Source: Candidatus Bathyarchaeota archaeon (GTDB lineage Archaea; Thermoproteota; Bathyarchaeia; Bathyarchaeales; Bathyarchaeaceae). Taken from it: a stretch of DNA of 35,832 nt. The DNA lies in NCBI GenBank assembly GCA_029879825.1, contig JAOUPL010000002.1, positions 1-35,832 on the forward strand, in the 5' to 3' direction. Under the pieces are notes generated by a model. The model saw nothing but the letters and a program-made list of their open reading frames with translations. It made no database searches and was not told where the DNA came from. Position 1 is the stretch's first letter; the number at the start of each line of letters is the position of its first letter. The translations under genes and the position numbers were made by a program. Below, one piece after another: positions 15,692-28,876 of the stretch.

Positions 15692-15802
15692 TGGCGCCGG
15701 GGAAGGGATTTGAACCCTTGAGGCGCAAAGCGCCACCGGCTGTCTTCTGACCCCATATTTGTACATCTCGAGGCCGGCACATTACCGCTCTGTCACCCCG
15801 GC
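15692..15802 (-). tRNA. tRNA-Ser(CGA) with 25-nt intron (15742-15766) and encoded CCA
   Basis: Reverse complement folds as a tRNA: acceptor GCCGGGG/CCCCGGC, discriminator G plus CCA, anticodon stem CCGGC/GCCGG with loop CT-CGA-G|A, long variable arm GGCGC-TTT-GCGCC, T-arm AAGGG-TTCAAAT-CCCTT. Confidence 0.93.
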
Positions 15803-19954: not shown

Positions 19955-20519
19955 TGAGCCCACGAGCAACAAGTCTAGCCACCCTTATGGGTTCAGGAAC
20001 CCTGCAACAAACAGATGTAGCGCGGATCAACCTGCTCGCCCAGTTCATTTCGGCGCCAACAACCTCCACATAAACGGGCGGCTCAGCGGGCATCGAAACA
20101 ACTTCGTATACGGAACCAAGCTTCTCAAAGACCCTCCAGCGAATCCGCCAGTCTTCAAAATGCTGACGAAGGGCATTTTTTACAGCGATATTGTTTGGTT
20201 TCGTTCTCGAAATTACGATGACGGGGTTGCTGAACTCTTCGAAAACAATTGTGGGATCCACCAGATTGAAGCCTGCAAAAGAAACTCCCGCCAGCATAAC
20301 AGCGTCAAAAGACCATCGGTGCAGCATGGAGGTTAATTTCTCTGTAGCGTCCAAACCGTCTACGGTTATCATATCCGCTTGAAAATCGTTGATCCATTTT
20401 CCTCTTAGTAAAACACAAACGAAAAGGGCTTTCTGAATGCCACAACTTTGTAGTTTCCTAGAGAAACCTCCGTCTTCAACTCCTACTACCCGAAACTCCC
20501 GCCAAACATTTAGGGACAT
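19941..20519 (-). CDS. DUF99-family endonuclease V-like protein
   Basis: VGVEDG, ITVDGLDAT, GVSFAGFN.VD and VPEPIRVA motifs. The 5' end overlaps the cdc6 3' end. Confidence 0.85.
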   Translation of the reverse strand: MSLNVWREFRVVGVEDGGFSRKLQSCGIQKALFVCVLLRGKWINDFQADMITVDGLDATEKLTSMLHRWSFDAVMLAGVSFAGFNLVDPTIVFEEFSNPVIVISRTKPNNIAVKNALRQHFEDWRIRWRVFEKLGSVYEVVSMPAEPPVYVEVVGAEMNWASRLIRATSVCCRVPEPIRVARLVARGLTRML

Positions 20520-21726
20520 AATCAATCAAACGCCCGAGTCTATCGTCAGTAGTAAATACTTCTCTAATAAGACTGCGGCCGATACCCAAACGAATTTTTT
20601 TCGTACGTCCATATCGTCCCATGCTTACAACCCTCGCGTTCAACAAGCCTATCATGTCTAATTCGTTAATCAGACCACTAACCCGCCTCTGAGTCAGCGG
20701 AGAAAGGCCAAACTGATCGCAGAGTTCACAATAAATTTCATAAATGTCACCAGTGATGGCACAGCCAACTTTCGCCTTGCCCAACAGATAAACGCTGCAT
20801 AAAACCAATTTTGAGTATAAGGGGAGGTTTACCAAAACTTCTACAATTCGATCATGCTCAACCCTCTTCTCAGCCTGCCTTACGTGATCTTCAGTAACAC
20901 AGGACGATCCCTCCCGCTCTGCTAACTCGCCTGCAACGCGAAGGAGATCTAAGGCCCGTCTAGCGTCACCATGTTCCGCGGCAGCTAAGGCAGCGCACAA
21001 ACTTACAGCACCATCAAGAAGCACCCCCTCAAAAAAGGCCAGTTGAGCACGTTCCCAGAGGATGTCCTGAAGTTCAGCTGCGTCGTAAGGTCTAAAAACT
21101 ATTTCCTCCTCGCTTAGGGAACTCAAAACTCTAGGATCTAGAAACTCCTTGAATCGAAGGTCGTTTGATATCCCCACTATCGCGGTTTTACCGTGGCGAA
21201 GAGTTTCGTTTACTCGGGTTAATTCGTAAAGCAACACATCGCCCCGAACCTTTATTAGCGCATCGATTTCGTCAAGGACAACGATGAAAATATTTTTCTG
21301 TAAGTCCAATCCTTCTTTAAATCTATCAAAAACTTCTCCCACAGCCAAGCCCGTGAAGGGAACCTTCACGCCTAAGGCATCACATAAGCTTGAAAGGACC
21401 CTGTACTCTGTGCCAGCTAAGCGACAGTTTACATAACAAACCTCAACAGGAGCCCCCAATTCACTTGCTTTAACAGAAAGCCTGTTCAGCATATATTTCG
21501 TAGCTGCCGTTTTTCCTGTACCAGTTTTACCGTAGATAAAGATATTGGAGCATCGAGAACTTTTCAAAACAGGAGCAACTATTTCGCCCAGACAATTAAT
21601 CTGTCTCTCACGATGCGGAAGCTTGTCGGGAACATAATCGTGCCGCAGCACTTCCCTGTCCTTAAAAATATGAGTGCCCCTTAGAAATCGTTCAAAAACA
21701 TCATCGAGCACGTCGAGTTCGTCCAT
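20476..21726 (-). CDS. cdc6: Orc1/Cdc6 replication initiator
   Basis: LPHRE, Walker A GKTGTGKT, Walker B VLDEID, LDPRV.SSL, GDARRALDLLR and wHTH GRYGRTK motifs. Confidence 0.97.
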   Translation of the reverse strand: MDELDVLDDVFERFLRGTHIFKDREVLRHDYVPDKLPHRERQINCLGEIVAPVLKSSRCSNIFIYGKTGTGKTAATKYMLNRLSVKASELGAPVEVCYVNCRLAGTEYRVLSSLCDALGVKVPFTGLAVGEVFDRFKEGLDLQKNIFIVVLDEIDALIKVRGDVLLYELTRVNETLRHGKTAIVGISNDLRFKEFLDPRVLSSLSEEEIVFRPYDAAELQDILWERAQLAFFEGVLLDGAVSLCAALAAAEHGDARRALDLLRVAGELAEREGSSCVTEDHVRQAEKRVEHDRIVEVLVNLPLYSKLVLCSVYLLGKAKVGCAITGDIYEIYCELCDQFGLSPLTQRRVSGLINELDMIGLLNARVVSMGRYGRTKKIRLGIGRSLIREVFTTDDRLGRLIDYVPKCLAGVSGSRS

Positions 21727-21905: not shown

Positions 21906-21927
21906 ACCCCTATATTTCTTCTGGAAA
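21906..21927 (-). promoter_or_regulatory. ORB element 1
   Basis: Minus strand reads TTTCCAGAAGAAATATAGGGGT, matching the TCCA...GAAA...GGGG ORB pattern. Confidence 0.8.
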
Positions 21928-22088
21928 TAAGTCTCGAAGAAATATGGTATGGCTATTCTTTTATAAGAATAAGTCTCCGCTTGGTTTTTGACTTTTCTAT
22001 ACTTAATGATTATTGTAAAAGACTTTTGAGTATATCCTACAAATTTTTATTTAAAAAGCCAGTCTACGTGTTGGTCACCAGTTCATGA

Positions 22089-22109
22089 GTCCAATGGAAA
22101 TAAAGGGGT
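22089..22109 (+). promoter_or_regulatory. ORB element 2
   Basis: GTCCAATGGAAATAAAGGGGT, close to the canonical ORB with G-string. Confidence 0.85.
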
Positions 22110-22332
22110 AGGAGTGTCAACTTTGACGGAGAATCCTGATGAAAAGACGCAAGTATGCATAACCTTACACTGGATACCTACGGTCAAGGGCAGCTTACAC
22201 ACTCTTTTAATGATTGTGTTAAACATTTAACTTGTTGTAGAATGTTGTGAAGTTAACTTCTAAATGCCTCCTTTTTTCCTCCTTTACTAGGAAAATTAAC
22301 TCCATTATGTGTCGTTGTGCGTTGAAATACGT

Positions 22333-22353
22333 CCCCTAGGCTTCTACTGGAAA
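22333..22353 (-). promoter_or_regulatory. ORB element 3
   Basis: Minus strand reads TTTCCAGTAGAAGCCTAGGGG. Confidence 0.7.
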
Positions 22354-22553
22354 AAGGAGTTCATCAACCGTCTATTCTCCATTTTGAGAAAGTAGGCCTA
22401 AGTGAAGTTTGTGAACCTAATAAACTGCAAATTTTCGTTGATTTCTGCTTTGCGTCGATTTTTCGGTTGTTTTATCGGCGCCCTCTTTACCGTAATTTCT
22501 ATAACTTGTGAAGTGTTAACTTGTAAAGACTTTCGGGGTCATGGGTGCATGGA

Positions 22554-22976
22554 ATGCCGGCTAGAAAAATGCGGGTGGAGATCTTCAACGGCAGCGGGGA
22601 CCGCTACACCATAACTTTTGAGGGCCAGGTGACGAGAGAAAAGGCTCTTCGCCTACTAGACCTCGTTGAGCTCTTAGGAGGTGTGCCCACGGGTAATCCT
22701 GGTTTGAATCGCCCCACATCCGAGTTGTCCAAAATTGACAAAATCCGCCTAGTCGTTGAAAAAAGTTTTCCAATCGGATGGTTTTCTTGTAGGGATGTTC
22801 AATGCACATATGAAGAAGAGTTTAAGGAACCCATCAGCCTGAGCACAGTTTCCACTTACCTGTCTCGAATGGCTGATCGCGGGGTCCTCACCAAAAGCAG
22901 GACTTCCAACCGCCGACGTTATAGGATCATGACTGAAGTGTCCAAAGTATCAAGTTTTATGAAAGATAATAAATAG
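22554..22976 (+). CDS. Origin-adjacent uncharacterised protein with C-terminal winged HTH
   Basis: Small N-domain, G/P linker, then wHTH-like ISLSTVSTYLSRMADRGVL...RRRYRI. Divergent from cdc6. ATG at 22554 preferred. Confidence 0.75.
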   Translation: MPARKMRVEIFNGSGDRYTITFEGQVTREKALRLLDLVELLGGVPTGNPGLNRPTSELSKIDKIRLVVEKSFPIGWFSCRDVQCTYEEEFKEPISLSTVSTYLSRMADRGVLTKSRTSNRRRYRIMTEVSKVSSFMKDNK

Positions 22977-23050: not shown

Positions 23051-24037
23051 ATGAGTAAAATAAGTGAGGACTTGGCAGAGATGAAGAAAAAACTTGGTGA
23101 ATATGTTAACAAGGGGCGCGTAATAGGTTTTCATGAAGTTAGGAAGGAGCCTGTTATAGCAGTTACGCCTGATAAGTCTAAAATAAAGCCTTTGAGAAAA
23201 ATGAAAAGTTGCGACGTACATTTCATGGCTGTAGACTGTTCAACGAGGACCTTGAAGAGGGCTAATAATTGGGGAATCTACCTATTTCGCACGGCATACG
23301 CTCTAGTGAGGAGACGCGACGTGCATTGGGACTACGAAGAGAGAATTCACACTGTAGTGGGGGATGCCTATGTACGTCGCAAGATATTGCAAGATGTTAG
23401 GCTTAATCTGGAAAGTGAGATAGCTTTAAGGTTGGTTCGTGATGCCGGTGAAAGTAATTACCTACTCCTAGATGGCGCTAGCTACTTTGGTGGAGAGAGA
23501 AAGTTCTGGGTGGAGTTATATGAAAAATGCAAAGAAGAAGGGCTCAAACTTTTAACAATAAGCAAGCAGTCTCCAATGCTTCATGATGAGAAAGGGCGGG
23601 ACTTGATGGCTGCGACGTGCATGCTTTCTCCTTCTTATCCGCTATGGGTCTACTACCCAGTCAAACCAGCAAACATACATGAACATCAGTATGGCGACGT
23701 ATCTATGGTCAAACTTAGTGGAGAAAGTCCACGCATTTTCCGATGCGATATAATGGAATATTTACGCAACTGTGAAATCACTGAGTTACTTTCTCCACTT
23801 ACCTTCGTATCAGAAGATCCTAGATGTCTTGGCTATCCAGTTACTCTTTGGCTGGCTCACGATTTTTCGACTCCATCCGACTCGATGCTTCTTCACTATC
23901 ATGATCAAGTTGAGGAAACGCTAGCCAGTGCCGGGTTGTTAAATGTACTTCGCGTTGAAGAACTCTCATGCAGCTTTCCAGACGAACTTCATGGGGTAAA
24001 ACACCCGTTTCAGCGGGAGTGGATTGAGCATGTCTGA
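23051..24037 (+). CDS. nurA: NurA-like 5'-3' nuclease
   Basis: MAVDCS, LLLDGA, ISKQS and GYP..L.LAH motifs of the NurA family; overlaps the downstream ATPase. Confidence 0.78.
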   Translation: MSKISEDLAEMKKKLGEYVNKGRVIGFHEVRKEPVIAVTPDKSKIKPLRKMKSCDVHFMAVDCSTRTLKRANNWGIYLFRTAYALVRRRDVHWDYEERIHTVVGDAYVRRKILQDVRLNLESEIALRLVRDAGESNYLLLDGASYFGGERKFWVELYEKCKEEGLKLLTISKQSPMLHDEKGRDLMAATCMLSPSYPLWVYYPVKPANIHEHQYGDVSMVKLSGESPRIFRCDIMEYLRNCEITELLSPLTFVSEDPRCLGYPVTLWLAHDFSTPSDSMLLHYHDQVEETLASAGLLNVLRVEELSCSFPDELHGVKHPFQREWIEHV

Positions 24038-25583
24038 GCCTGTAGGGTTTATTCGTGAGGTACGAGGGGATAAGGTTTCGTTCTTCCTTAATCGAGGAGT
24101 CAACCTTTCGTTTGGTCAGATGGTTAGAATAGACTCTGGCAACAGAAGCTTCTATGCCCGTGTGGTGGATGCCGGGAGTTGCTCTACATTAAAAACGGAT
24201 GAGCAACTTCGTGAAGCCGAAGGGAAGGAATCTTTTGGGCCTTACTCCAGCTATAGGCATGTTGACGCCATTCTTTTCCTTGAGAAGGATGCTGGAAGAA
24301 TTCGTTCTCCAACCTTTAATCCTGATTATATGGACAGGGTATACGCAACCAGTCAGGAAGACTATTCGGTTTTGAGGCTTGCAGGGGAGTTAGAGATAGG
24401 ACGTTTGCGTTCTGGAGAGCATGTGCTTGGCTCTGTAGGCATAAGTGTTGAAGCCATACCTTTGATGATGGGCATGTTTGGAATGACAGGCTCTGGGAAA
24501 ACGAATTGTGAATTAATGCTTAACGCACGGATCGTAGATTCTAGTCCAAGGACTGTCGGTCTAATTTTCGATTTTGCAGGTCAACTTCTAGAGGGAAAAG
24601 GAATAAGGCCTCAACAAGGTCTGCGGGATCATCCCCTTTTTCACACCAAGGTTCGCTACTACTCGGTTAGAGAACGGAAGATGCTTATTGGCTTGTATAC
24701 GATTCAACCCCAAAAACTTTACACATTTTTCCCCGACATAACCCATCATCAAGTCAGACTGGCTCATAAACTTTACAACAGATTGGGAAGCACTTGGATA
24801 GAACAGTCGCGAGAAGCCTATGGTAGAGACGGGTATAAAGGAGTGGCTGCGTTCACTGATTACAAAAGCAAAGCTGTGATAGATGCTCTTATGCTTAAGC
24901 TCTCCAGTTTATCCCCAGACCTCTTCCCGCCTTCTGACTACAGTTTTGTCGATGATGTGGTTCAGAATGTAAGTAAAGGCGTCACCTGTCTCATCGACAT
25001 TTCAGGAATCAGTTTTGAGGAGCAGCATCACGTGACTTGCCTTACTGCTTCTAGTGTGGCTTTCCACTACAAGCGGATGTGGGAAGGCAATTTTGAGGAG
25101 TGGAAAAAGCTTCCAACCCTCCTGATAACTCTTGAGGAGGCCCATGAATTCCTTGACCCCAACCTACCTAAAACCATATTTTCTGACATCGCCCTCACAT
25201 ACCGAAAGTATCGGGTCGGACTGAATGCTGTGACTCCGCGGCCTTCAAGAATAAACCCTAACGTCTTCGCCGAGCTTTGGACCAAGGTCATTATGAAGAC
25301 AGAATTGCGCCGCGACAGGGACTACCTTACCCAAAACACGCCCTACCTTGAATACAGCGACACCGAGATAAAAATGCTAGATGTTGGAGAAGCATTACTT
25401 ATCTCAGAACCGCAAATCCGATTCGCTGTTCCGATAAAGGTCATTCACTACCCTGACTACTTGGACGAGAGGGGACGGGTCGAATATGATTTGCCACCGT
25501 CAAAACCACTTTCTGAGATGGACGAAAAACTGAGGAGAATTCAGCAGGCTGGGAAGTCTCTCACTGCGAAAGGTGAAGGCTAA
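24030..25583 (+). CDS. herA: HerA-like ATPase/DNA translocase (FtsK-HerA superfamily)
   Basis: N-terminal beta-rich HAS-barrel-like region, Walker A GMTGSGKT, Walker B ITLEEAHEF, then RKYRVGL..VTPRPS and LDVGEAL. Confidence 0.82.
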   Translation: MSEPVGFIREVRGDKVSFFLNRGVNLSFGQMVRIDSGNRSFYARVVDAGSCSTLKTDEQLREAEGKESFGPYSSYRHVDAILFLEKDAGRIRSPTFNPDYMDRVYATSQEDYSVLRLAGELEIGRLRSGEHVLGSVGISVEAIPLMMGMFGMTGSGKTNCELMLNARIVDSSPRTVGLIFDFAGQLLEGKGIRPQQGLRDHPLFHTKVRYYSVRERKMLIGLYTIQPQKLYTFFPDITHHQVRLAHKLYNRLGSTWIEQSREAYGRDGYKGVAAFTDYKSKAVIDALMLKLSSLSPDLFPPSDYSFVDDVVQNVSKGVTCLIDISGISFEEQHHVTCLTASSVAFHYKRMWEGNFEEWKKLPTLLITLEEAHEFLDPNLPKTIFSDIALTYRKYRVGLNAVTPRPSRINPNVFAELWTKVIMKTELRRDRDYLTQNTPYLEYSDTEIKMLDVGEALLISEPQIRFAVPIKVIHYPDYLDERGRVEYDLPPSKPLSEMDEKLRRIQQAGKSLTAKGEG

Positions 25584-26290
25584 GCCATAGCTTCCCTCTT
25601 CTTCAGGATTTTCTGCATTTCTTCCTTTAGGCGGTAAGTATAGGGCATTTTATGGGTGTCTCTCTCCAAATAGCCGTCTTCATAAAGCTTTTTCATTAGA
25701 CGAGCAGTGTGCTCCCTCGTAAGTTTTATTTTTTCTCTGATTTCAGGCGCCGTTTTTTCACCCTCTTTGGCGATGGTTTCAAGCGCAGTTAGTTCGGTTT
25801 CTGTTAGCGGAGCCAAGGCTTTTTCCTTTTTGATGGGAATAGCCGCCTCTATTCTCGCTTCAGGCACTTGGACTTTATATTTTAGTTTTTCAACCTCCTC
25901 AATTCTTTGTACTATCTTATTTTCCGTCGCTTTTATGTCGTCAACTTTCTTGTTCATCTCCTCGATCTGCGTAGACAATTTCTGTTCAATTGCGGGGGCA
26001 TCTTCAACTATGTTGGCAAGAGTCGCTAATCGCTTATCGTATTCTTCTACCTTCTTCACAACTTTTTCGTTCTCGGAAGAAATTATCTCTATTTTATGGG
26101 TGACTGCACGGAGGCCAGCCGCTTGTCTTTGAAATTGTCTGTTGACGCTCATGGTGATGTCACCCACGGTGTTCTTTGCCTCTTCGTATTCCTCGTGAAC
26201 CCTTCTTATTCGCTTATAGTAAAGGGCAGACGCACCCATTGTGACAAGCAATAGGGCTGTTACAACTATTAGAAGAAGATAGGTGTACAC
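25580..26290 (-). CDS. Membrane-anchored coiled-coil protein with C-terminal winged HTH
   Basis: Hydrophobic N-terminal helix (YLLLIVVTALLLVTMGASALYY) followed by KRIRR, ~110 aa of E/K-rich heptads, then LTETELTAL...TAPEIREKIKLTREHTARLMKKLYEDGYLER. GTG start with a G-rich SD. Confidence 0.82.
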   Translation of the reverse strand: MYTYLLLIVVTALLLVTMGASALYYKRIRRVHEEYEEAKNTVGDITMSVNRQFQRQAAGLRAVTHKIEIISSENEKVVKKVEEYDKRLATLANIVEDAPAIEQKLSTQIEEMNKKVDDIKATENKIVQRIEEVEKLKYKVQVPEARIEAAIPIKKEKALAPLTETELTALETIAKEGEKTAPEIREKIKLTREHTARLMKKLYEDGYLERDTHKMPYTYRLKEEMQKILKKREAMA

Positions 26291-26364
26291 TAAGCCCCCT
26301 CCTCTAATCGTTTAGAAAAAACGAGACGCGCGTTGTAAGGTATAAAATACGGCGTTGACGCAAC

Positions 26365-26496
26365 TGTGATTCGAGTGTGATCCCTTGTGATCTGCATAAT
26401 GTGATCACACATCACATTATCGTATAGATGAACTTAAATTTTATGTTAGAATGGGGGAGAATAACGATAATCAAAATCGTGACATCACACGTCACA
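26365..26496. repeat. TGTGAT/ATCACA repeat clusters A and B
   Basis: TGTGAT at 26365, 26376, 26386, 26400; ATCACA at 26404, 26411, 26484; variants CGTGAC 26478 and GTCACA 26491. Confidence 0.85.
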
Positions 26497-26714
26497 ACAC
26501 GGCCGTAAAAACTCTGCGAGTTCAAAGGACCACATAAGCGTAACTTCTCTTCAACGTTGCTCATTCTTCCTCCATCTACCAAACTGAATCAATGCGAAAG
26601 ATGCTTTGTTTATTTAAAAGGGGCTCAAATTCGAGCTTAAATTACTGTGGTGCGTGTTTACCCTGTGAAGCATCCCAATTCTGGTACTGTGGGATTAATG
26701 CGTCGCGTCTCCGC

Positions 26715-26744
26715 TGTTATACGGTTGTGATTTGTGATATCACA
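26715..26744. repeat. TGTGAT/ATCACA repeat cluster C
   Basis: TGTGATTTGTGATATCACA at 26726-26744, plus variant TGTTAT at 26715. Confidence 0.8.
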
Positions 26745-27213
26745 GCTTTTCTGACATAGTTCTTGGTTTAGATAATTGTTCTAGACTCATTTTCAATTCT
26801 TCATGGAGCATGCTTATTATTCTTAAATGTTCATCTGTTGCTTTTTTCCCAAGGCCTCTATTCGCTTTCATGTAGGCTTGCAATTTGTTTGCAACTTCCA
26901 GATAGGGATCTAGGCGAGTATCCTCAAAAACTCCCAAATATCCTAGAAGAAGAATCGTGTAGATGGATTGAATGACGTTCCACCTAGCTTGCCTCAAAGT
27001 TCTGTTGAAAGCACCACGACTTACGGCTGAAAGCCTTAATCTGGCTTTTTCATCGTATTTTAATGACTTTCCGGATATATTCTCAGCCAAAATGTCAATT
27101 AAAAGTGTTTCTAACTGTGTTTTAGTCAAAATACTGTTTTTCGCTAGTGTTTTTACAATCGGGTCATCTAAAGAGCGTATTAACCATTTTTGCGCCTCCT
27201 CCTTCAAGCGCAA
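26740..27213 (-). CDS. Uncharacterised helical protein with probable HTH
   Basis: LTKTQLETL...YDEKARLR..VSRGAFNRTLRQAR resembles an HTH with recognition helix. TTG at 27213 follows a GAGGTG SD; the track start at 27291 is probably too long. Confidence 0.7.
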   Translation of the reverse strand: MRLKEEAQKWLIRSLDDPIVKTLAKNSILTKTQLETLLIDILAENISGKSLKYDEKARLRLSAVSRGAFNRTLRQARWNVIQSIYTILLLGYLGVFEDTRLDPYLEVANKLQAYMKANRGLGKKATDEHLRIISMLHEELKMSLEQLSKPRTMSEKL

Positions 27214-27247
27214 TATTTCCACCTCAGAGCAGTGTCTAGGGGATACA

Positions 27248-27271
27248 CTTTTGTATACAAGCATACAAAAG
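27248..27271. promoter_or_regulatory. Inverted repeat / putative operator upstream of the HTH gene
   Basis: CTTTTGTAT-ACAAGC-ATACAAAAG (9-bp arms), overlapping palindrome TTGTATACAA at 27251-27260. Confidence 0.5.
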
Positions 27272-27544
27272 GTTTGTGGTTTCTTCCTCAACGGGCCGTA
27301 TGCATTTGTTTAACTCAATACTGTGAAAATATACAAATATGAAAAAACTTTGTACGGAAAAAATCGAAGTAACAAAAAGACTCTTTTTTTTCAAACACTC
27401 TCAAAAACGATCATGGAGCATCATGGCCTTTGTTGTTCATTATTCTTTCTTCCTCACGCAATGTGTTTTGGTGTTATTCGTCTGGGTTAGAATTGCGAAA
27501 CTCACAGGGCTTGGTGGTCCCCCTCGTTGGGGAAAGGAAACGCG

Positions 27545-27700
27545 GTCACGTTTTGTCCTGTGACTCGAACGTGTGGCGATGTTACAGGTGTGATGGTATA
27601 TTTGAGAAAAATGACTTTAGGGTATGCTGATGGTGTGATTTTTTTCTGATCACAGGAAGATCACGTGTGATTGTCACAAATGTCAAAACCGTGATATCAC
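27545..27700. repeat. TGTGAT/ATCACA repeat cluster D
   Basis: TGTGAT at 27589, 27634, 27666; ATCACA 27649; variants GTCACG 27545, TGTGAC 27559, ATCACG 27660, GTCACA 27673; palindrome GTGATATCAC 27691-27700. Confidence 0.82.
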
Positions 27701-28033
27701 TTAGATGGAGAGCTCCCCTCTTTCAAGAAGTTCTTTCAATTCTCTCTCCACCTTCTCGTTCTTTCTAGGCGTTTCAAGCAATTGATGCACAGCATACCCA
27801 TCTTTTCGTAGGTCCGCCGTTAACGTCCTCATTTCAAGCTCTTGGGCGCGAATACTCGGATGCGTCTTCACGGTTGTGTAAACCCGTAGGATGTTTGCTA
27901 TGGTGGCCTCTTGAAAAATTAGAACTAGTCCGTTTTTCAGTTTCATAGAGATCCGCAGGTGCTTATGACCTTCCGGCACTCCTACCAATATTTTGTTCAC
28001 GTCCTCGTTGCGAATTATGCGAATTTTGTTCAT
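27701..28033 (-). CDS. Hypothetical protein, last gene of the nadE-nitrilase string
   Basis: 110-aa ORF starting 9 bp after the nitrilase stop; protein-like segments PEGHKHLR and FQEATIANI.R...VKTHP. Confidence 0.75.
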   Translation of the reverse strand: MNKIRIIRNEDVNKILVGVPEGHKHLRISMKLKNGLVLIFQEATIANILRVYTTVKTHPSIRAQELEMRTLTADLRKDGYAVHQLLETPRKNEKVERELKELLERGELSI

Positions 28034-28042
28034 GAAGGCGCC

Positions 28043-28876
28043 TCACAGTTTTTCTGCTTGTTCCCGTAAGGAATTGAATAGTTCGGGTCTTAAGTCGCGT
28101 AGTGTGGGCACAAAGGCTTCTGCGCGTTCCAAATCCGCGTAGTCGATGGTTCCTATGACTAGATCTTCTTCGTCGTAATTGGCTTTTGCAAGGATACTCC
28201 CGTCGGGGGCTATTATTCTGCTTCCCCCCCAAAATTGTAATCCATTTTCAACTCCAACGAGGTTCACGTAGGCTAGAAAAACAGTGTTTTCAAGAGCTCT
28301 CGCAGCAGTAAACACCTCAAAGAACCTGCTTCTCACAGCTGGCGAGGCTGATATGCAGACTATAAGTTGTGAGCCTTTCAATCTTAGCAAGCGGGATATT
28401 TCCGGGAAAAACATGTCGTAACAAATCGTCAACCCCATTTTTCCGATTTCTGTTTCGAAAACTGGCGCCTCGTATCCTAGTCGAAAATAGCGTTTCTCTT
28501 CAAAAACGCTGTGGGTTGGCAGATGCATCTTTCGGTACTTACCGATCAATCCGTCAGGACCCAACAAAACCGCTGTATTGTAGAGGACGGCGTGTGCCTT
28601 CTCGCTTTGTTCAGGCATTCCAAAAACTATGTATATGTTCTCTTTCTTTGCTGTCTCTTCCAAGGAGTAAATGGAAGAGCCTGGAATGGGCTCCGCCAAC
28701 TCATACGCGAGGTCCCGGTTTAAGTAGCCGGTTAATGAGAGTTCTGGGAAAATAACGAGGTTTGCGCCTTTTTCCTTTGCCCGTTTAATATTGTTCTTCA
28801 TGACGTTAATGTTGTGTTTCTTATCTCCAACTTTACAACTTATTTGTGCAAGAGCCACGTTAACTTTTTCTGGCAT
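28043..28876 (-). CDS. Carbon-nitrogen hydrolase (nitrilase superfamily)
   Basis: E-K-C triad: FPELSLTGY, YRKMHLP, ICYD. Also RALEN and GGSRII.PDG. Confidence 0.92.
   Translation of the reverse strand: MPEKVNVALAQISCKVGDKKHNINVMKNNIKRAKEKGANLVIFPELSLTGYLNRDLAYELAEPIPGSSIYSLEETAKKENIYIVFGMPEQSEKAHAVLYNTAVLLGPDGLIGKYRKMHLPTHSVFEEKRYFRLGYEAPVFETEIGKMGLTICYDMFFPEISRLLRLKGSQLIVCISASPAVRSRFFEVFTAARALENTVFLAYVNLVGVENGLQFWGGSRIIAPDGSILAKANYDEEDLVIGTIDYADLERAEAFVPTLRDLRPELFNSLREQAEKL

Follow-up and report, generated by a model that had tools for sequence, protein, structure and literature searches.

Arrays of short repeated units placed at promoters are already known. In the omega/parS system of plasmid pSM19035, 7-bp units 5'-WATCACW-3', both direct and inverted, lie over the promoters of the binder's own genes; each site comprises 7–10 gap-free heptads, and four or more of them are needed for ParA activation (PMC9499535). 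In archaea, the glycolytic motif of Thermococcales is TATCAC-N5-GTGATA, and the effect of TrmBL1 depends on position relative to the TATA box (PMC4706686). RicO of Staphylococcus aureus is described as a protein in which a coiled coil and a membrane-binding helix accompany the DNA-binding domain, and whose sites are confined to the surroundings of oriC (bioRxiv 10.64898/2026.03.06.710092). Here we consider four arrays (A to D) of GTGAY/RTCAC units in a 35,832-bp stretch of Candidatus Bathyarchaeota archaeon (GenBank assembly GCA_029879825.1, contig JAOUPL010000002.1, positions 1 to 35,832; below, the window), which lie around two adjacent genes, P0003 and P0004, and most probably represent the operator or anchor set of P0003, a predicted membrane-tethered winged-helix protein. 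Compared to other short-unit arrays, they are notable in being unique in the genome, adjacent to the origin and conserved together with a membrane-anchored DNA-binding protein.

The window contains 23 TGTGAT/ATCACA hexamers, 14 of them at 26365–27671 and nine across the other ~34.5 kb; an earlier note on this DNA, made from the sequence alone, had listed 14 exact copies, and all were recovered at exactly the same positions. The shorter core GTGAY/RTCAC occurs 112 times in the window, and the 22 occurrences in 26291–27700 agree with the approximately 22 units in four clusters proposed in that note, being split into 6, 3, 3 and 10 cores in arrays A, B, C and D, respectively, with none in the ~800 bp between 26745 and 27544. 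The intergenic DNA amounts to 942 bp (449 + 493), close to the ~940 bp estimated previously; however, cluster C is not purely intergenic, as it overlaps a gene stop codon.

The genome searched is a Bathyarchaeia metagenome-assembled genome (MAG) of 1,279,306 bp in 155 contigs, 76% complete (G000). It contains 499 exact hexamers, that is, 0.51 expected per 1336 bp compared to 14 observed (Poisson probability 5e-16), and the maximum in any other 1336-bp segment is five. The 5-mer core is less specific, with 22 observed and 3.5 expected (2.6e-11), and one other segment reaches 18 cores. That segment, on contig C155, is the only other site in the genome where the core count nears that of the arrays, and its cores are widely and irregularly spaced within the gene of a repeat-domain protein. 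It was considered as an array along with a three-hexamer group on contig C137, and both, being coding sequence with irregular spacing, were treated as chance. The C155 gene (19312–21021, minus strand) encodes a 569-aa, probably surface, protein, and its coding sequence is rich in GTGAC (Val-Thr codons). At least four cores within 40 bp are found in only two places genome-wide, both at the array locus, and all four GTGAYRTCAC dyads of the genome sit on the array contig, within 26154–27700. The clusters are real, statistically exceptional, unique to the locus in the genome and under strong constraint. Moreover, the genome-wide density scan, listed in the earlier note among the possible checks, finds that such clusters are not common, being confined to one locus 4.0–5.8 kb from an origin of the ORB (origin recognition box) type.

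Read in the sense of P0004 and P0003, both on the minus strand, the locus starts with array D (about ten units), followed by an A/T-rich spacer of ~400 bp, a separate dyad (motif 2, see below), P0004, and array C over its stop codon; then come ~230 bp with an oligo-T tract, array B, 20–40 bp, TTAAGT-N6-TATA, array A, and the Shine-Dalgarno sequence and start of P0003. Array D (27545–27700) consists of ten units in both orientations, 340–495 bp upstream of the P0004 start. Array C (26726–26744) is a compound three-unit element, TGTGAT-ATCACA-A-ATCACA in gene sense, overlapping the P0004 TGA stop, and array B (26478–26496) is another, TGTGAC-n-TGTGAT-GTCAC, near-invariant in 19 loci. Array A (26365–26416), with six units between a conserved TATA-like element and the P0003 start, begins in gene sense with a pair of direct units that an inverted one overlaps (TGTGAT-n-TGTGATCACA) and continues with three same-sense ATCACA at 10–11 bp; it is conserved column by column in 19 loci and ends ~20–25 nt before the P0003 start codon in 13 of them. 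The recurrence of a compound three-unit element noticed earlier (26400–26416, 26478–26496 and 26726–26744) holds, as does the helical phasing of the copies at 26365, 26376 and 26386, with steps of 11 and 10 bp. Directly between arrays B and A lies a TTTAAGT-N6-TATA-like A/T-rich element (26421..26440, minus strand), with TTAAGT near-invariant and TATA(T/C) behind it, which we read as the TFB recognition element (BRE) and TATA box of the P0003 promoter.

The unit consensus, derived from 639 units in 34 loci, is (T/c)GTGA(T/c). Direct pairs are spaced by 7 bp (94 pairs), 8 bp (26) or 10–11 bp (94), the commonest inverted arrangement is the abutting convergent GTGAY|RTCAC (84), and RTCAC-nn-GTGAY is found 48 times. 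Measured from RTCAC start to GTGAY start, there are 48 pairs at 7 bp, six at 11 bp and none at 10 bp. Gap-free runs comprise at most three units in the window (A, B, C, and 27660–27677 in D) and up to six in array D of the kin. The geometry of the units fits neither C/D-box small RNAs, nor CRISPR-like repeats, nor ORB elements, nor the CRP-like TGTGA-N6-TCACA dyad. Small open reading frames (ORFs) over array B (50 codons, minus strand) and at 26592–26759 (plus strand) were also discarded, as their frames are not conserved and only the DNA motif is.

Related loci come from Bathyarchaeia MAGs at the family and order level, and a distant set is formed by 15 Thermoproteota loci. P0003 is present in 35 and P0004 in 37 of the 41 genomes of the family and order, the two genes being adjacent wherever both are found; both are missing from four of the 41 (G002, G033, G034 and G035). 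The four arrays occupy the same relative places in all 19 family-level loci, and a further 15 loci, taken from other families of this order, show the same placement in 14 cases (the remaining one being L046), down to 36% P0003 identity. In the spacer between P0004 and P0003 of the 19 loci, the majority base accounts on average for a fraction of 0.96 in columns within units (90% or more in 48 of 58 columns) and of 0.49 in non-unit columns (37 of 431). For array D, where the alignment is poorer, the values are 67% in units and 57% elsewhere. The position of array C is kept at the order level, and array D accompanies P0004 even with different genes upstream, in most kin lying between the divergent elf1 and P0004. 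With regard to orthologous regions, absence from which would, according to the earlier note, have refuted its reading of the clusters, they are present in 33 Bathyarchaeia loci and, in a weaker form, in Nitrososphaeria.

At a larger distance, the gene order cdc6, winged-helix gene, P0003, P0004, pcrB/elf1 recurs far beyond Bathyarchaeia, to Nitrososphaeria, and the P0004 family is present in 133 of the 251 Thermoproteota genomes sampled. One distant locus encodes proteins on record from Nitrosarchaeum koreense MY1, annotated as a hypothetical protein and a "winged helix DNA-binding protein". In three Nitrososphaeria loci, GTGAT units are seen over the P0004 stop, in the spacer and before the P0003 start, weaker than in Bathyarchaeia, and array D was not seen in the loci read; P0003 there retains the anchor, the coiled coil and the helix REHTSRLMKKLY. 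In L071 (4080–4210), L058 and L057, all from A/T-rich genomes, four in-frame GTGAT fall in the last ~40 codons of P0004 (Val-Ile/Asp-Ile pairs), and the array may extend into the P0004 coding sequence there.

The presence of the arrays follows that of P0003. In seven distant loci where P0004 is followed by a full P0003, the 690 bp behind P0004 contain 8–16 GTGAY cores (13 in L057, 11 in L058, 8 in L059, 9 in L063, 14 in L066, 16 in L069 and 13 in L071), with ~1.8 expected; loci with only a short P0003-like winged helix have three. Exactly one core each is found in L060, L064, L067 and L062, where a profile search finds no P0003 in the genome (two genomes searched and one locus read for each of families f39, f41 and f14, respectively; one genome searched for L062 of f21, in which tblastn yielded a weak 62-aa winged-helix match only). 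P0004 is retained in all four array-less loci, and the cdc6-adjacent winged-helix gene in three (L060, L062 and L067); therefore, neither of these genes needs the arrays. In five genomes without P0003 there are two GTGAYRTCAC sites in all (0–2 per genome), neither clustered nor paired. The simplest assignment is that P0003 binds the GTGAY arrays, which we consider quite likely from this co-occurrence.

It is unlikely that the binder is another protein, namely P0004 itself, with its possible helix-turn-helix, or an unlinked factor such as an omega-type ribbon-helix-helix protein. P0004 is always adjacent to the arrays and is more conserved than P0003 (51–94% compared to 36–92% identity), a segment of its structural model resembles a LuxR-type DNA-binding domain, and the 7-bp unit spacing is classic for ribbon-helix-helix proteins. 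Still, lineages that keep P0004 without P0003 have no arrays, and P0004 is accompanied throughout by a different motif that would plausibly serve as its operator. Moreover, no ribbon-helix-helix family is found in the 48 ORF translations of the window scanned against Pfam, as the earlier note had stated, and the P0004 model has no beta strand.

The putative operator of P0004 is motif 2 (27241..27270), an ATACA-A-rich-TGTAT dyad 35–65 bp upstream of the gene start. In gene sense it reads GTATAC-N6-GTATCC plus a flanking TTTTGTAT arm and forms an invariant block in 20 loci, while each of the 11 distant loci read has one of its ATACA-(A/T)4-TGTAT variants ahead of P0004, irrespective of the presence of P0003. 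The genome contains one full copy, one loose look-alike on contig C86 and two half-sites elsewhere. Motif 2 is proposed as a separate operator, probably of P0004 itself, this being the simplest assignment. In five well-assembled kin, 14 of the 24 GTGAYRTCAC sites are at the locus (2–4 in each) and the other ten are single, compared to 17 matches of a reversed-pattern control; as the dyads elsewhere are scattered singly and motif 2 is single-copy, neither the GTGAY arrays nor motif 2 define a detectable regulon.

P0004 (26740–27207, minus strand) encodes a 155-aa all-helical protein of no known family, with a C-terminal helical hairpin and a TTG start that aligns across 17 of 20 loci. A few codons inside the gene (27185–27207), GGAGGAGG precedes an ATG that is out of frame, opens a frame of eight codons and would mislead gene callers. 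The protein has no credible sequence match in Pfam or the Protein Data Bank (PDB). An earlier model built from 15 close sequences was unusable (predicted local distance difference test, pLDDT, 56) and was replaced by one from an 80-sequence alignment (pLDDT 89.7), which is all-helical; Foldseek comparison of the latter with PDB gave nothing at an E-value of 0.001 or better, and VIA-align retrieved mostly generic helical hairpins. Residues 24–97 superpose on the LuxR-type domain 7vim_A (Z 7.3, root-mean-square deviation 2.7, 64 aligned residues), with Z within the noise range of helical models, and in a language-model cluster of look-alikes Sigma70_r4 is assigned to 14% of members (score 0.82). 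These observations suggest a possible helix-turn-helix similar to sigma-70 region 4 or LuxR at residues ~24–97, as a lead, not proof.

P0003 (25580–26290, minus strand; 236 aa) comprises an N-terminal hydrophobic anchor, the sequence KRIRR, a coiled coil of ~110 aa and, at the C-terminus, a winged helix of MarR/TrmB-like type. This architecture is shared by 31 aligned orthologs, and P0003 is predicted, from hydrophobicity and flanking charges only, to be a single-pass membrane protein. The winged helix scores 28.6 bits against MarR PF01047 (residues 162–213; cut-off 24.6) and 25.0 bits against TrmB PF01978 (cut-off 25.6), and many orthologs have a precomputed PF01978 match. Neither the recognition helix REHT(A/S)RLMKKLY nor the GTGAT core varies from Bathyarchaeia to Nitrososphaeria. 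In databases P0003 is named only "MarR family regulator" or "membrane protein"; neither P0003 nor P0004 has a name beyond such automatic labels, and in the literature, searched at the abstract level, no description of this pair or of its arrays in archaea was found.

With P0003 as the candidate binder, the arrays may be interpreted as its multi-unit operators bracketing its own core promoter, that is, as sites of autoregulation, to which we assign a probability of roughly one half. In a classical dimer, the two wings could not both reach units spaced by 6–7 bp on one face of DNA; such units suit one DNA-binding module each, as in the case of omega dimers on heptads (PMC9499535), and this leads to a model where a coiled-coil oligomer of P0003 presents several winged helices. 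Each winged helix would read one 5–6-bp unit, the units being presented as compound elements (two direct units at 7 bp and one abutting inverted unit) and as helically phased units at 10–11 bp. A similar principle is known for the heat-shock factor, in which a winged helix is combined with an oligomerizing coiled coil and trimers bind at least three adjoining 5-bp units per site, with the orientation alternating from unit to unit. The analogy concerns the mechanism alone, the heat-shock factor being a eukaryotic, soluble activator of a stress regulon that recognizes nGAAn units. In P0003 binding, three modules may be engaged at each site, as suggested by the compound element of three units.

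Since arrays B and A bracket the TATA-like box and the 5' leader, their occupancy should repress the P0003 promoter. Array A occupies the interval between the TATA-like box and the Shine-Dalgarno sequence in 13 of 19 loci, and in archaea, as stated for TrmBL1, binding downstream of TATA blocks recruitment of RNA polymerase (PMC4706686). Arrays C and D, framing P0004, could join the same cooperative, possibly looped, complex, and P0004 would be regulated apart through motif 2. Even if only autoregulation takes place, the locus would still be a well-defined cassette of two regulators with two operators.

Several observations weigh against this interpretation. A second TATA-like element (26341..26354, minus strand) is located between array A and the Shine-Dalgarno/GTG of P0003, within a ~55-bp insertion (in 26291–26364) shared only by the window and L013–L015, its three closest kin; because of it, array A may sit upstream of the active promoter in this clade, and the promoter layout of the clade may differ from that of the majority. 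Positions of array D, 340–495 bp from the nearest start codon, and of array C, at a gene 3' end, are odd for simple operators, and half-sites 6–7 bp apart are unusual for MarR-type dimers. Autoregulation alone does not explain the restriction of the regulator's sites to a single locus, nor the membrane anchor of P0003, nor the fact that the cassette stays beside oriC across the phylum. In addition, the assignment of the binder draws on co-occurrence among related, non-independent genomes, and two loci fit it imperfectly, L065 with a divergent gene order and L068 (G210:C15, from one Bathyarchaeia family), where P0003 is ~7 kb from P0004. Two groups of GTGAY cores are seen in this ~7-kb stretch of L068.

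Similarly to TrmBL1, the presumed binder is an archaeal winged-helix regulator, which scores just under the TrmB cut-off, and the half-site hexamer is identical. However, TrmBL1 has one dyad per promoter in a dispersed sugar regulon, whereas the GTGAY arrays are restricted to one locus in G000 and in the five well-assembled kin; moreover, the TrmBL1 dyad geometry is absent, as follows from the lack of RTCAC-to-GTGAY pairs with starts 10 bp apart among the 639 units. TrmBL1 is soluble and has a sugar-binding domain; P0003 carries a membrane anchor together with a coiled coil instead. P0003 resembles MarR autoregulators in having a winged helix above the Pfam cut-off and sites overlapping the regulator's own promoter, but MarR proteins are soluble compact dimers of ~150 aa on one or two 16–20-bp dyads, and P0003 adds the N-terminal anchor, KRIRR and a coiled coil of ~110 residues, with ~22 units.

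The earlier note had compared the units with the omega heptads, allowing that the likeness may be convergent. The likeness stands at the DNA level: it includes the ATCAC/GTGAT core, the 7-bp register (direct 7-bp neighbors occur 94 times, see above), mixed orientations, several clusters in the promoter setting of the binder's genes, and one unit per protein module, if the model of P0003 binding is correct. Membership in the omega/parS system (type Ib partition and the omega regulon) is not supported, as the window encodes neither a ribbon-helix-helix protein nor, among the same 48 translations, a ParA family member, and the runs are short. Omega is a ribbon-helix-helix dimer from a Firmicute plasmid with a ParA ATPase partner, while here we deal with an archaeal chromosome and a likely winged-helix binder; compared to 7–10 gap-free heptads in omega sites, runs comprise three (window) to six (kin) units, with frequent abutting GTGAY|RTCAC dyads and 10–11-bp phasing. 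Convergence is the better reading.

The origin-proximal position of the arrays agrees with another, tentative explanation, which we consider possible but doubtful: the P0003-bound set of 22 units in 1.3 kb may be a membrane anchor or centromere-like site near the origin, with promoter occlusion a by-product, as with plasmid centromere-binding proteins. Membrane-anchored P0003 oligomers would then coat the arrays and tie the origin region to the membrane for positioning or segregation, and P0004 would be a co-evolving regulatory partner in a system spanning Bathyarchaeia to ammonia-oxidizing Nitrososphaeria. RicO provides a bacterial precedent with the same domain logic, although its sites, as described, are nine 18-bp elements over about 700 kb and its membrane element is an amphipathic helix, compared to the hydrophobic N-terminal anchor of P0003 and ~22 short units in 1.3 kb (bioRxiv 10.64898/2026.03.06.710092). 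As in origin-membrane tethers, P0003 carries, judging from its sequence, a membrane-targeting element and a coiled coil besides its DNA-binding domain. Another tether of the RicO functional class is RacA of Bacillus subtilis. Moreover, the P0003 sites are unique in the genome at 4.0–5.8 kb from the ORB cluster, throughout the phylum the locus stays adjacent to cdc6, with the order cdc6, winged-helix gene, P0003, P0004 retained from Bathyarchaeia to Nitrososphaeria, and arrays C and D are poorly placed for promoter control.

On the other hand, no motor or ParA-like partner is found among the window ORFs, the P-loop proteins near the arrays being only Cdc6, the HerA-like ATPase and SRP54; several lineages with the same origin neighborhood lack both P0003 and the arrays and so can do without the system; a single ~1.3-kb locus offers little to hold on to; and in Nitrososphaeria units are far less numerous and array D was not seen. 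To our knowledge, no machinery for origin positioning or segregation is known for lineages from Bathyarchaeia to Nitrososphaeria, and none was found described for them in the literature at the abstract level. If true, origin tethering by P0003 would constitute a directly testable archaeal origin-anchoring system, with orthologs in cultured strains, in a phylum that includes globally abundant sediment archaea and marine and soil ammonia oxidizers, and with a second conserved protein, P0004, of no known family.

The presumed origin is formed by ORB-like repeats (21907..22353; TCYAnTGGAAA with a G/C-string) between cdc6 (20476–21726, minus strand) and a small winged-helix gene, and is probably the chromosomal oriC. 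Of its three repeats, two are direct copies of CCCCTA-N6-TCTnCTGGAAA, and one, in the opposite sense, is TCCAATGGAAA followed by GGGG; the GTGAY units show no likeness to them. The window represents a chromosomal replication island in the order PolD DP1, Cdc6, ORB-type oriC and PolD DP2. The winged-helix gene (22545–22976, plus strand; 143 aa) has weak matches to Penicillinase_R and Cdc6_C, adjoins cdc6 in Bathyarchaeia and in nine of the 15 distant Thermoproteota loci, Nitrososphaeria among them, and may encode an origin-associated factor. Between it and P0003, and convergent with the latter, lies a pair of NurA-like and HerA-like genes (23051–25583, plus strand), which is kept in all 19 family-level loci and absent from the 15 distant loci examined; the pair is a Bathyarchaeia addition.

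This neighborhood makes it very improbable that the arrays are iterons of a second origin or a remnant of an integrated plasmid or virus. The repeats do adjoin an A/T-rich stretch of ~330 bp (27208–27545) and genes of DNA-binding proteins, with the HerA- and NurA-like genes nearby. However, the window, which encodes an intron-bearing tRNA, Cdc6/Orc1, PolD subunits DP1 and DP2, Elf1, geranylgeranylglyceryl phosphate (GGGP) synthase and many translation and transcription proteins, is therefore core archaeal chromosome; the neighborhood is syntenic across the phylum and has unremarkable composition, the module lacks an initiator, an integrase or a partition ATPase, and a canonical ORB-type origin with cdc6 is 4–6 kb away.

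Equally remote is the explanation that the units act in RNA, that is, in the 5' leader of P0003 and at the 3' end of P0004, as sites of an RNA-binding protein or as structure. If transcription starts at the distal promoter, the 5' leader would include the three same-sense ATCACA of array A; array C is at the P0004 3' end, and an RNA-library contig spans 26436–26811; still, units in both orientations and dyads are present in every array, arrays B and D lie outside any evident transcript, the units have no Rfam match (nothing at 26200–27800 even at E-values up to 5), and the library may contain DNA. The contig mentioned, 377 nt long and derived from a relative (40 differences, three gaps), connects the 3' end of P0004 and array C with array B across the spacer; it possibly represents a read-through transcript, but may also stem from DNA carry-over. 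In total, five contigs from a small share of one run, 85–99% alike, cover parts of P0003 and P0004, with nothing concluded from them, and none covers array A, array D or 27153–28100 (one run, contigs only).

Upstream of array D, the clade of the window differs from most kin by the insertion of nadE, a CN-hydrolase gene and ORF110. The latter (27701..28033, minus strand) is a lineage-specific small gene that ends directly at array D, outside the conserved module; it has tblastn matches only in the window and three of the 19 loci, and no Pfam family. The only Rfam match in the whole window at gathering thresholds is a tRNA of 108 nt far from the arrays (15695–15802, minus strand; 47.3 bits), which was missed by ARAGORN and probably carries an intron, as many archaeal tRNAs do.

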